From the UHGV virus genome UHGV-0070243: DNA of 41,024 nt; one strand, given 5' to 3'. A program made the position numbers and the translations under genes. The notes beneath the pieces are model-generated. The model made no database searches. It had not been told where the DNA came from and saw only the letters and a program-made list of their open reading frames with translations. This DNA is from a virus. Shown in pieces: positions 33,850 through 36,735 of this stretch; positions within the stretch are counted from its first letter, which is position 1; the number at the start of each line of letters is the position of its first letter.

Positions 33850-33910
33850 CTTTACCCTCGCTTATCCACATAACTTATTGATTACATTGATAACTAAAAA
33901 GATCGTCGAT

Positions 33911-34276
33911 TCAGAACTCTTCGATGTTCCAGCCGCCACCTGCTTTCTTTGGTTTAACCGTTACCCCGATGATTCGGAACGGATACTGATCTGCGGCTAC
34001 TTTGGTTTTCACCCTGGCGTCGTCGGTCCAGAATCCCCCTTTCACTTCGTGCAGTTCCATCTCTCCGGTGGCGAGCATCACAGCGAAATCGGGCGTATAG
34101 AACGTGTTGTCAGCTAACCGCAGCTTAATACCCTCGAATCGATACCAGGCGATTTCCCCTGCACGTTTACGCTGCTCAAGGTGCTGGCAATACGCAGATT
34201 CTGTTTTGTTCATCTGGCCTGTTTTGTTCATCTGGCCTGTTTTGAGTCGACCAAGAGCCTGTATCTGTTTTCTCAT
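33911..34276 (-). CDS. hypothetical protein (121 aa) with internal 18-bp tandem duplication; possible PD-(D/E)XK fold
   Basis: motif YTPDF...EMELHEVKG; DNA repeat CTGTTTTGTTCATCTGGC x2 at 34201-34236 encodes TGQMNKTGQMNK; operator-like site immediately upstream. Confidence 0.45.
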   Translation of the reverse strand: MRKQIQALGRLKTGQMNKTGQMNKTESAYCQHLEQRKRAGEIAWYRFEGIKLRLADNTFYTPDFAVMLATGEMELHEVKGGFWTDDARVKTKVAADQYPFRIIGVTVKPKKAGGGWNIEEF

Positions 34277-34279
34277 GAT

Positions 34280-34294
34280 TTACCTCTAAGGTAA
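34280..34294. promoter_or_regulatory. operator-like palindrome TTACCtctaaGGTAA
   Basis: perfect site 4 nt upstream of the 34276 start codon. Confidence 0.6.
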
Positions 34295-34341
34295 TTAAAA
34301 ACCACATAAGACACGAAATCAATAGAGCTTAGAATATTTTG

Positions 34342-34356
34342 TTACCTTATAGGTAA
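34342..34356. promoter_or_regulatory. operator-like palindrome TTACCttataGGTAA
   Basis: perfect site, 62 bp from the previous one in the same intergenic region. Confidence 0.6.
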
Positions 34357-34393
34357 TTATTGAGGCGTAAAAAAATGCGCTATCGCGCTGGTA

Positions 34394-35176
34394 TTACTTG
34401 ATAAATCCTGCCGCCTTTCCCCGCCTGTATTCCTCCATCAGCCACTGCGCCGGTGTTATTCCCCCAAGGGTGGCGGCGTTAGGCATGCACCCGAAACTTC
34501 GCCCTGGTGGATGGTAAACGTCTCTCCCTGTGTCCGGAGGTGTACTCATGGGCTCTGGCTTTGCCTGTATGCTGATCACCGGATCGGGTATCTGCTGTCC
34601 GGAAGCCACCTTTTTCGCCCAATCATCGAGCAGCCTGCGCGCGTGTTTCTCAACCTCAATCTCGCTAAGCTGGCGCTGATACATTGCACGGCGGGTATCA
34701 CATACGACCCAGTACATAACCGGATGCCGCCACGGGAATCTTTCGGGACCACCAGGATATAAACTTTTTTCCTTGCTGTACCGGTGAAACTCCGCCATCA
34801 CATCGTCAATGGTGACGCCAAGAACCATCTTGCTGTCTTTGCACCACTTGATGAATTGCCCAGGCGACGGCCAGAACGGAGATTCACTGGCGCGGGCGTG
34901 GCGCATACCAGCGTTAACCTGTTCCATTGTTGTGATCCCATTCTCCAGAAACGCAAGCATCCATTGTTTTCGAAATTCGTTTAGCTTTCCTTGCTCGCTG
35001 ATAGCAGCGATGCTGCCTGGAAATGCAGCCTGTAACTGGACAAACATTTCGTTGAAAATTCTTGCAACCTGCTCCTTCTTTGCCCTTTCATCGTCAGCAG
35101 AAGCAACCGCCGTCGAGTGGTCATGCCCACCACGAAAGCGATCGTACTCATTAAGAAGTTCTGGAGTTGATTTCAT
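34394..35176 (-). CDS. replication protein P-like (DnaB helicase loader), about 260 aa
   Basis: QWMLAFLENGITTMEQVNAGMRHARASESPFWPSPGQFIKWC closely matches the lambda P region QWVLAFRENGITTMEQVNAGMRVARRQNRPFLPSPGQFVAWC (memory); RBS GAGGTG; overlaps O-like gene. Confidence 0.8.
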   Translation of the reverse strand: MKSTPELLNEYDRFRGGHDHSTAVASADDERAKKEQVARIFNEMFVQLQAAFPGSIAAISEQGKLNEFRKQWMLAFLENGITTMEQVNAGMRHARASESPFWPSPGQFIKWCKDSKMVLGVTIDDVMAEFHRYSKEKSLYPGGPERFPWRHPVMYWVVCDTRRAMYQRQLSEIEVEKHARRLLDDWAKKVASGQQIPDPVISIQAKPEPMSTPPDTGRDVYHPPGRSFGCMPNAATLGGITPAQWLMEEYRRGKAAGFIK

Positions 35177-35984
35177 CCCACACCTCATCTATCCAGTCAG
35201 TGTTATGCCAGTCAAGGCTCTTTCTGACTTCACCTGATTTCTGTCTACAGAACTGGATGCGCCTTGCCAGCTTCTGCTCCCACTGTGCCTGATGGTATGC
35301 CTTACCCTCAGCCATCCAGTAAATTCTGAACTCTGCAAGTTCCTGTGCCGTTGGCAGACTGTCCAGGTAGATTCCCTGCAATGAGCTTTTCCGAAGAAAG
35401 TCATCTGATGGCTGCCATTGTTCATGCATGACAAATTTACCTAATTGCCCTGGCCCACCAGGAGGAACAAAGTTATTCATCACGGCGTTGTTTGCGCCGG
35501 GGTCATGAGGAACAGAATCCCCGGTTTTTGTCCTGCTCTCCCTCTCTTGGTTAAATGACTGGTTATATGACTGGTTCTGGATCCCGTTTTTGGGATCATT
35601 CAACATCCCGTTTTTGGGATCATTCAACATCCCGTTTTTGGGTATATTCCCGTTTTCGGTAACATTACCGTTTTCGGGTTCATTGCCCCCCTCCCGGTTG
35701 CCTTTAATGTTCCCGTTTTTGGTTATATTAAGAGAGAAAACCCGCACTCTTTTTGTCGCTCCCTTTCTCTCTCCGGTATCTGAAATAAGCCCCATTTTCA
35801 TGAGCGATATAAGCCCGGCCTGCACGGTTTTTTTATTCAGGCAAGTGTCTTTAACGAGGCGTTCTATGCTGGGGTAGCAGAGGTTATATTCATCGGCTCT
35901 GTCAGCCATCGAGAGCAGTATGAGCTTTAATGATGAGCTACCTGGATCTGTCTCCCAGGCCCAATCTGTTGCATGTCTGCTCAT
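35151..35984 (-). CDS. replication initiator (O-like position): N-terminal DNA-binding region, iteron-encoded Asn/Gly/Pro repeat linker, DnaT-like C-terminal domain
   Basis: C-terminus GKFVMHEQWQPSDDF...ELAEFRIYWMAEGKAYHQAQWEQKLARRIQ resembles E. coli DnaT (memory); GGAG RBS; contains iterons. Confidence 0.7.
   Translation of the reverse strand: MSRHATDWAWETDPGSSSLKLILLSMADRADEYNLCYPSIERLVKDTCLNKKTVQAGLISLMKMGLISDTGERKGATKRVRVFSLNITKNGNIKGNREGGNEPENGNVTENGNIPKNGMLNDPKNGMLNDPKNGIQNQSYNQSFNQERESRTKTGDSVPHDPGANNAVMNNFVPPGGPGQLGKFVMHEQWQPSDDFLRKSSLQGIYLDSLPTAQELAEFRIYWMAEGKAYHQAQWEQKLARRIQFCRQKSGEVRKSLDWHNTDWIDEVWDEINSRTS
35581..35730. repeat. iteron array (candidate replication origin) inside the O-like gene
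   Basis: two perfect 24-bp tandem repeats ATCCCGTTTTTGGGATCATTCAAC (35581-35604, 35605-35628) then four degenerate CCCGTTTT(T/C)GG units, followed by AT-rich DNA. Confidence 0.7.
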
Positions 35985-35999
35985 GATTAATCTCCGCTA

Positions 36000-36200
36000 T
36001 CAGCTTGAGTGTTGTGGGGAGGAATTAATCATGATCTGCTTAATCTCTGCCCTGATGCGACGGTTTGATTCCATGGTGCACTCAACACAGTGTCCGTTGT
36101 AAACCCAGCGTTCACTGTCATGTCCGTGCTTACATGGTTTTCCGGTGTAGTAGCGTTTAAGTCCGCGCTTTGCGGCATCAATACGTGTAATGATTTCCAT
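36000..36200 (-). CDS. small Cys/His-rich protein (66 aa) in the cII-like position
   Basis: internal ATG at 36200; CKHGH...CVEC zinc-finger-like spacing; ORF-track start 36263 is TTG and overlaps the operator site. Confidence 0.4.
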   Translation of the reverse strand: MEIITRIDAAKRGLKRYYTGKPCKHGHDSERWVYNGHCVECTMESNRRIRAEIKQIMINSSPQHSS

Positions 36201-36280
36201 GGTAAGCCCTGTTATTAGTATTGGGATTACGGTTATTTTGTGCTGACACAAAAAAAAGATCAACCAGATTTGGTTTTTTA

Positions 36281-36295
36281 TTACCTTTGAGGTAC
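36281..36295. promoter_or_regulatory. operator-like site TTACCtttgaGGTAc between the cro terminator and the next gene
   Basis: one mismatch in right arm. Confidence 0.5.
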
Positions 36296-36300
36296 GAATA

Positions 36301-36328
36301 GATATGAAAAGACCGCCGGGTGGCGGTC
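36301..36328 (-). terminator. rho-independent terminator directly after the cro-like gene (tR1-like)
   Basis: GACCGCC-accc-GGCGGTC on the minus strand followed by TTTTCATATC. Confidence 0.65.
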
Positions 36329-36350
36329 TACAGAGGGTTGTGGCTGGATA

Positions 36351-36581
36351 TCATGAGTAGAAGAAGTATGCCAGTTCTGCTTTTGAGCGCAGCCATTGTC
36401 TTGTTTTACAGGCTTTAAAAAGCCCATTCATCAATACTTTACCTGGCATTTTTCGCTTACCTGTTAAGTGAGTCTGGATATAGTGACTCGTCGTTCCGGC
36501 TTCCTGTGCGAAGGCTTCACGCTCATCCGGAGTAAGTGCAAGCCAGTGCTTTTTGAAATCGAAATGTCCGTTATCGCTCAT
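36351..36581 (-). CDS. Cro-like HTH regulator (76 aa)
   Basis: HTH-like segment AFAQEAGTTSHYIQTHLTGKRKMP; first gene transcribed leftward from the divergent operator region. Confidence 0.55.
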   Translation of the reverse strand: MSDNGHFDFKKHWLALTPDEREAFAQEAGTTSHYIQTHLTGKRKMPGKVLMNGLFKACKTRQWLRSKAELAYFFYS

Positions 36582-36617
36582 AGCTATTGCCTGATATTTA
36601 TTTCAGATAATAAATAT

Positions 36618-36680
36618 TCACCCATAAGGTAACAAAAATCAAGGATAGTTACCTATGAGGTGCATTTACCTGTTGGGTAA
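36618..36680. promoter_or_regulatory. OR-like tripartite operator between divergent cro-like and repressor genes
   Basis: three sites: TcACCcataaGGTAA (36618-36632), TTACCtatgaGGTgc (36649-36663), TTACCtgttgGGTAA (36666-36680). Confidence 0.65.
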
Positions 36681-36735
36681 TATTGCTTTAAATTGAATCA
36701 TCTACTGATTCATATATGAGGCGATTTTCCAGAAA

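Follow-up and report, generated by a model that had tools for sequence, protein, structure and literature searches.

The viral genome sequence UHGV-0070243, a stretch of 41,024 nucleotides (nt) referred to below in its full length as the window, is that of a phiV10/epsilon15-type (Uetakevirus-like) Escherichia coli prophage, whose early operon encodes a replication initiator and, next to it, a helicase loader of the lambda P family. These two genes very probably make up a theta-replication module built like lambda O-P, with the origin of replication inside the initiator gene. From the domains, repeats, gene order and family relations of the module, set out below, we infer how such an origin would work. 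The N-terminal winged-helix domain of the initiator would bind six dyad-symmetric iterons located in the linker-coding part of its own gene, and the assembled complex would open neighbouring DNA, a candidate site being the conserved AACCAGTCA repeats just downstream. Tethered DnaT-type three-helix domains would then bind to the single-stranded DNA so exposed, in the manner of DnaT at a restart fork, while a lambda-O-like C-terminal tail would dock onto the N-terminal domains of the P-type loader and so bring in host DnaB.

As stated, this finding adds little, for what the module provides is one more, so far unannotated, example of an origin type already known, and its gene pair is very common: phiV10 and hundreds of E. 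coli genomes carry it in annotated form, and its architecture has been published. The origin itself, that is, six phi80-type iterons and a conserved 12-base-pair (bp) repeat, carries no annotation in the phiV10 and RefSeq records examined (in the phiV10 record, gp43 is described as similar to the DnaT family and gp44 as similar to the lambda P family, and terminators are marked but not iterons), and literature searches, which did not surface the original phiV10 and epsilon15 genome papers, returned no earlier description of iterons in phiV10-type phages. More interesting than the origin is a comparative result on the C-terminal tail of the initiator, which points to a small peptide as the connector between initiator and loader.

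Iterons inside the initiator gene

The array emerged from a repeat search as six copies in register, spaced by 24, 24, 18, 18 and 45 nt, and the same search recovered the four known iterons of lambda O, used as a control. In the best copies (ATCCCAAAAACGGGAT in gene orientation) the arms of the dyad enclose an A-tract. Of the core CCGTTTTYGG, the 41 kb contain six copies, all at 35584-35722, against 0.15 expected; none of 100 shuffles reached this number. Lambda O-type origins are recognised by at least four dyad-symmetric iterons in the linker-coding part of the gene, and the window has six there, at 35581-35725. Tandem Repeats Finder resolves the same region into a perfect 24-bp unit (2.6 copies, 35581-35642), an 18-bp unit (3.1 copies, 35630-35684) and a 12-bp unit (2.4 copies, 35548-35576). 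Terminator-like hits at 35591-35634 proved to be artefacts of adjacent iteron dyads. Apart from the initiator repeats, the only strong tandem repeat of the window is a perfect 18-bp unit (2.4 copies, 34201-34244) in a neighbouring gene, within the start of a DUF1064 nuclease-like reading frame (33911-34276, minus strand), where it is translated as KTGQMNKTGQMNKT; relatives have a single copy of it.

The iteron core is the same as in phi80, where gene 15 contains four annotated binding sites for gp15 (TTCCCGAAAACGGGAA), and the window iterons also resemble those of lambda (ATCCCTCAAAACGAGGGA). Among phiV10-type relatives, they are confined to genes with this type of N-terminal domain, and are absent from the initiator genes of TL-2011b, epsilon15, SPN1S and Tyrion, which have other N-terminal types. 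PPompW, whose initiator N-terminus is 49% identical to that of the window (E-value (E) 2e-22), keeps CCCAAAAACGG, one copy of which lies in another reading frame (as T-Q-K-R-E), whereas the Klebsiella phage ST13-OXA48phi12.5, only 29% identical in this domain, has four different dyads (TATGCCATnnnATGGCA) at the same place. Across the sequences compared, the iteron sequence thus covaries with the N-terminal domain, its presumed reader. The 12-bp repeats with core AACCAGTCA, of which phiV10 has three copies and the window two, also follow the unrelated iterons of ST13-OXA48phi12.5 (1628-1668), where they are read in other frames; being kept in different reading frames, they appear to be conserved as DNA and not as peptide.

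In the window, the array is translated as ...NGNIKGN..PENGNVTENGNIPKNGMLNDPKNGMLNDPKNG..., the repetitive linker that a first-pass annotation of this DNA had recognised. In near-identical prophages, the number of exact iteron cores ranges from 4 to 9 and that of xKNG units from 5 to 12, always in frame, and the length of the protein from 256 to 311 amino acids (aa); judged by these variants, the linker is very tolerant of changes in copy number.

Domains, neighbours and occurrence of the initiator

The early operon has the order repressor, cro-like gene, small open reading frame (ORF), initiator and P, matching phiV10 with its Uetakevirus-type neighbours. The cro-like gene (36351-36581) and the small ORF that precedes the initiator have a terminator-like hairpin (36310-36329, minus strand) between them, at the place where a terminator is annotated in phiV10. 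On a RefSeq E. coli chromosome that is 100% identical, the coding sequence (CDS) of the initiator has the same limits as the ORF of the window, and the products of the two genes are named "DnaT-like ssDNA-binding domain-containing protein" (ssDNA, single-stranded DNA) and "replication protein P". The initiator matches the PHROG 1032 family profile, 'replication initiation protein', over its full length (E 1.9e-102, aa 1-266), and its architecture, PF13730 with PF17948, makes it a phiV10-type member. It also shares with lambda O matches to the N-terminal parts of PHROGs 678 and 345 ('O-like'), and a distant relation to the lambda O-type N-terminal domain is therefore possible.

The C-terminal domain resembles DnaT and not lambda O, as had been proposed. 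The DnaT DNA-binding domain PF17948 matches aa 184-250 (E 1.1e-14, 54 bits against a cut-off of 25), so that the profile check suggested by the first-pass annotation returned a hit; a sequence search of the PDB found DnaT chains only (6aep, 4ou6, 9zbt and others; E ~1e-19, aa 180-255); and BLASTP detected no similarity to the lambda O C-terminal domain, the final ~10 residues excepted. All six DnaT residues reported as critical for ssDNA binding (Liu et al.) are conserved in the alignment, with Y127, W128, K133, F135, K143 and R146 corresponding to Y222, W223, K228, Y230, K238 and R241 of the initiator, and most of these contact positions are invariant across six phage initiators. By cryo-electron microscopy, filaments of the DnaT C-terminal domain on lagging-strand ssDNA were found in 2026 to mark where the helicase is loaded (PMC13377028), and the most economical interpretation by analogy is that the DnaT-like domain would have a matching ssDNA role at the opened origin. 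What is shared with DnaT is limited to its residues 85-160. The N-terminal oligomerisation domain and the PriB-binding linker of DnaT are absent from the initiator, which has HTH_36 and the iteron-coded linker instead, and in place of the conserved DnaT tail RD[VI]NxxSEPDxxIPxGFRG and the dnaT-dnaC operon there are the tail LDWHNTDWIDEVWDEINSRTS and a next gene that is P, not DnaC. On this comparison, "DnaT" is the wrong name for a protein that is an origin initiator using a DnaT-type module.

The next gene is lambda-P-like, again in line with the first reading of the sequence: its product matches PF06992 at profile positions 2-162 of 162 (E 4.2e-53, 179.9 bits against a cut-off of 26) and PHROG 109, 'P-like helicase loader' (E 1e-87), and is 41% identical to lambda P, whose domain limits are taken here from PMC12661323. 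Its start overlaps the end of the initiator gene (35151-35188) by 26 nt from the RefSeq start at 35176 (MKST...) or by 38 nt from the ORF start at 35188 (MRCGMKST...). Calling this an unusual pairing was mistaken. A P-family gene follows in most phage records sampled that have the DnaT-like domain (phiV10, TL-2011b, Tyrion and the Rac/PPompW groups), a minority having no loader (SPN1S, epsilon15) or a DnaC-like one (pAEv1818), and DNA similar to the module is found in 545 of 5426 complete E. coli genomes (~10%). Moreover, the pair was already annotated in phiV10, and the same architecture, HTH_36 with a DnaT C-terminal domain adjoining a lambda-P-like protein, has been published as DopC/DopE (Brezellec et al., 2017, PMC5509034). 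The last residues of the initiator, too, form a lambda-O-like tail whose type goes with that of the P N-terminus, so that the P-specific part of the initiator is likely lambda-like after all, and the association of a DnaT-like initiator with P is normal rather than unusual. The protein database holds 856 clusters at E <= 1e-5; all of the closest 120 listed have the HTH_36 and DnaT domains and go by names such as 'primosomal protein' or 'DnaT-like...'. The features of the module are collected in Table 1.

Table 1. Features of the replication module, in window positions.
Feature	Positions	Strand	Details
Replication initiator gene	35151..35984	-	O position of early operon; 834-nt ORF, 277 aa; RefSeq CDS WP_000086416.1 with same limits
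N-terminal winged-helix DNA-binding domain, presumed iteron reader	35724..35984	-	aa 1-87; Pfam HTH_36 at aa 18-67, PF13730 E 2.3e-10
Linker-coding region holding origin repeats	35448..35723	-	aa 88-179; no Pfam domain
Iteron array, six 16-nt sites	35581..35725	.	starts 35581, 35605, 35629, 35647, 35665, 35710; consensus ATCCCAAAAACGGGAT in gene orientation, dyad arms ATCCC/GGGAT
Two 12-bp repeats, core AACCAGTCA (gene orientation)	35548..35571	.	directly after last iteron; only two copies in window; candidate unwinding or loading element
DnaT-like three-helix ssDNA-binding domain (putative)	35235..35447	-	aa 180-250; PF17948, PDB DnaT chains
C-terminal tail, proposed P-docking peptide	35154..35234	-	aa 251-277; motif LDWHNTDWI at 35190-35216
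Lambda-P family helicase loader (predicted)	34394..35176	-	260 aa from RefSeq start; ORF can extend to 35188
P N-terminal region, lambda-like type A	34910..35176	-	aa 1-89, roughly lambda P domains I-II; exchanged together with initiator tail

The C-terminal tail and the type of loader

Over the 2-kb module, the window shares ~97% DNA identity with phiV10 and relatives, one replaced stretch excepted. Compared with phiV10, this stretch begins where the DnaT-like domain ends and extends to about residue 90 of P, the two P proteins being identical after 'GMRHAR', and within it the window has the tail ...LDWHNTDWIDEVWDEINSRTS paired with a lambda-like P start, and phiV10 the tail ...VPHWNSPEAWEDFL paired with a different P N-terminus. 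Over its last 15-20 residues, the window initiator resembles the lambda O end LDLTNTDWI (LDLTNTDWIYGVDL), with seven of nine residues identical, an identity that is not significant alone. Tails of this kind (tail A) go with P N-terminus type A in the window, TL-2011b, lambda, phi80 and Yersinia phage 210.17, and those of the phiV10 kind (tail B) with type B in phiV10, Tyrion, Hafnia phage Meifeng, Klebsiella ST13-OXA48phi12.5 and Cronobacter phiES15, so that tail type tracks P N-terminal type in all ten phages (Fisher p = 0.008, relatedness not corrected for). [quoted passage not shown] Within both tail groups, the C-terminal domains (DnaT-like, lambda-type and others) and the P cores (window-type and lambda-type) are mixed. 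While the N- and C-terminal domains of the initiators and the P cores are freely exchanged, the tail stays with the loader N-terminus in every case, a natural experiment on the connection between the two proteins.

Initiators with other tails have other loader arrangements. The tail of DnaT itself (RDVNxxSEPDxxIPPGFRG) is conserved across Enterobacterales, beside dnaC, according to a scan of genome contigs that yielded nearly all host dnaT-dnaC operons and informs on DnaT tail conservation, not on prophage diversity. A near copy of the E. coli DnaT tail (RDVNAVPEPDSEIPPGFRG) ends the initiators of SPN1S, 66FD, L131 and L176-L219. Phage initiators with DnaT-type tails, which between them have four or five types of N-terminal domain, are followed by neither a P nor a DnaC gene within 2.5 kb downstream (44 of 44 viral loci, and likewise SPN1S, 66FD and L131), and a related ...EKPPGFN tail precedes a DnaC-like gene in nine of nine loci. 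Those of the Rac YdaU/YdaV type have a tail of ~85 aa, followed by a short P (136-159 aa) without the P N-terminal region, and PHROG 15931 is a natural fusion of a Rac-type initiator and a short P. The long Rac-type tail was considered as the missing P N-terminus and set aside, as it gave no Pfam or phmmer match, and no homology is claimed.

According to classical genetics, O binds P through its C-terminus, and P binds O through its N-terminus. The lambda mutation Oam205, a classical O-defective amber allele that is complemented only weakly in trans, takes away no more than the last five residues (PMC6022878). Since tail type tracks the P N-terminus whatever C-terminal domain precedes it, and initiators with the DnaT tail have no phage loader gene downstream, the short tail is probably the peptide that docks the loader, and may thereby select it. 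A broader proposal, which we offer tentatively and would not expect to hold in full, is that the last 15-30 residues of lambdoid initiators, past the C-terminal domain, would be a portable peptide of this kind: tails A (LDxxNTDWI) and B (VPHWNSPEAWEDFL) would each dock their own P N-terminal type whatever domain precedes, initiators with DnaT-type tails (RDVNxxxEPDxxIPxGFRG) would use host DnaC-DnaB, and the E. coli DnaT tail would itself recruit DnaC/DnaB to the restart preprimosome. In the literature searched, tail-P specificity has not been described before, and a 2026 structure paper still gives the recruitment of DnaC/DnaB to the restart preprimosome as unknown. The proposal also offers, for replication restart, a concrete and cheap hypothesis on the way in which DnaC/DnaB is recruited by DnaT.

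Alternative readings and known systems

Several observations weigh against a lambda-like module with its own origin, initiator and docking tail. In a nearest-neighbour stability scan, nothing in the window compares with the AT-rich tract of lambda, where the least stable 30-mer lies right after the iterons (83% AT, z=3.5); the least stable in-gene 30-mer of the window overlaps the first iteron (73% AT, z=2.3), and the DNA past the last iteron is ~58% AT. Of the lambda-like layout that the first-pass annotation described, the perfect 24-bp tandem repeats and the further copies therefore stand, but the AT-rich segment does not. DnaA boxes are absent from 33871-36724, and the window as a whole has no excess of them. 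A Pfam search of the initiator gave HTH_36 and no match to PF04492 (Phage_rep_O), which the lambda O control matches at 6e-36, and BLASTP found no significant pairwise similarity between its N-terminal domain and lambda O or phi80 gp15. AlphaFold2, run with 12 near-identical sequences, yielded an unusable model (mean pLDDT, the predicted local distance difference test, 34.8), from which only a secondary-structure pattern can be taken, consistent with a winged helix and a helical C-terminus. The epsilon15 initiator (2033-2710) stops right after the DnaT-like domain, has neither tail nor loader gene, and is thus an exception to the tail-loader rule; more generally, tail and P N-terminus are adjacent in DNA, so that their co-inheritance could be simple linkage. 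Lastly, the literature searched contains no experiments on this origin or protein. What the first-pass annotation had at its centre, a replication initiator in the O position with origin-type repeats inside its gene, is supported by the ORF, the PHROG 1032 match and the six in-gene iterons.

Were the repeats a slippage-prone, low-complexity coding linker with no role at the DNA level, and the origin elsewhere, one could understand why copy number varies freely among relatives, why every copy in this gene is in frame, and why no AT-rich element adjoins the array. Dyad symmetry, however, is meaningless for a peptide, and such a linker would not be expected to have a core identical to annotated phi80 gp15 sites, to keep that core in a different frame in PPompW and the AACCAGTCA repeats in other frames in ST13-OXA48phi12.5, to change in sequence along with the N-terminal domain, or to be the only repeat cluster of this kind in 41 kb. 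This explanation is accordingly improbable, and a DNA-level role of the repeats as origin iterons is favoured by the sequence comparisons. Even less credit can be given to the idea that the protein is a phage copy of primosomal DnaT, acting in PriA-dependent restart or primosome assembly and not as an origin-specific initiator. It is encouraged by the GenBank and RefSeq names 'primosomal protein I' and 'dnaT' and by a C-terminal domain that is a true DnaT homologue, but the homology is confined to one segment of DnaT, HTH_36 and the iteron-coded linker replace the oligomerisation domain and PriB-binding linker, the conserved DnaT tail is lacking, and the gene occupies the O position, accompanied by iterons of its own and a P loader.

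A question internal to the module is which part of the initiator recruits P. The DnaT-like domain or its ssDNA filament might do so, with the tail serving, for instance, cooperativity or oligomerisation and its association with P due to linkage only. According to passages in PMC5314882 (citing Szymanski 2013) and PMC4132743, DnaT deprived of its last 18-26 residues has an altered oligomeric state and a lower cooperativity of ssDNA binding, which also tells against a docking tail; the tail and the P start are <100 nt apart; and direct contact of DnaB with the DnaT-ssDNA filament was proposed by Liu et al. Against this, the same tails, on three or more unrelated types of C-terminal domain, still follow the P N-terminal type, the recombination breakpoints lie upstream of the tail and not at the gene boundary, and in the 44 and 9 viral loci mentioned, the partner of a DnaT-type tail is DnaC or no phage loader at all, and never P. 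Recruitment through the DnaT-like domain is hence unlikely, although it deserves more weight than either of the preceding alternatives, and tail-P docking is the reading retained here, as part of a lambda-like module with its origin inside the initiator gene.

Among known systems, the closest is phiV10 gp43/gp44 (Uetakevirus), which has the same surrounding genes, the same N-terminal domain, six iterons, the DnaT-like domain and the P core, and is near-identical in DNA over most of the module; it differs in having tail B and P N-terminus type B in place of the lambda-like tail and N-terminus of type A found in the window. In phi80, the origin likewise lies inside the initiator gene (gene 15, with gene 14 as its partner), the iteron core TCCCGAAAACGGGA matches TCCC[A/G]AAAACGGGA of the window, and tail A (LDFNNTDWAYGV) again accompanies P N-terminus type A, whereas phi80 gp15 has the Pfam Phage_rep_O N-terminal domain and a lambda-type C-terminal domain, with no pairwise similarity to the window initiator, and its four iterons are set at 21-bp spacing. 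Lambda O/P shares with the window the gene order, iterons with TCCC...GGGA dyads and an A-tract in the linker-coding part of the gene, the C-terminal motif LDxxNTDWI and a related P; unlike the window, it has a Phage_rep_O N-terminal domain, a C-terminal domain not of the DnaT type, iterons of 18-19 bp that are mutually out of frame, and a clear AT tract after them.

Systems with a DnaT-like domain are similar in other respects. DopC/DopE is likened to the window pair by architecture, but is chromosomal, vertically inherited and domesticated in Cellvibrionales and Oceanospirillales, with no iterons found, whereas the window pair is prophage-borne and has iterons. The Rac prophage pair YdaU/YdaV also consists of an initiator with a DnaT-like domain and a following P-family gene, and differs in its long tail and in its short P devoid of the N-terminal region. 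E. coli DnaT/DnaC has the homologous three-helix ssDNA-binding domain with its contact residues, and a helicase-loader gene immediately downstream, but DnaT has another N-terminal domain, a PriB-binding linker and a tail of its own, has DnaC as its partner, and works at forks instead of an origin.

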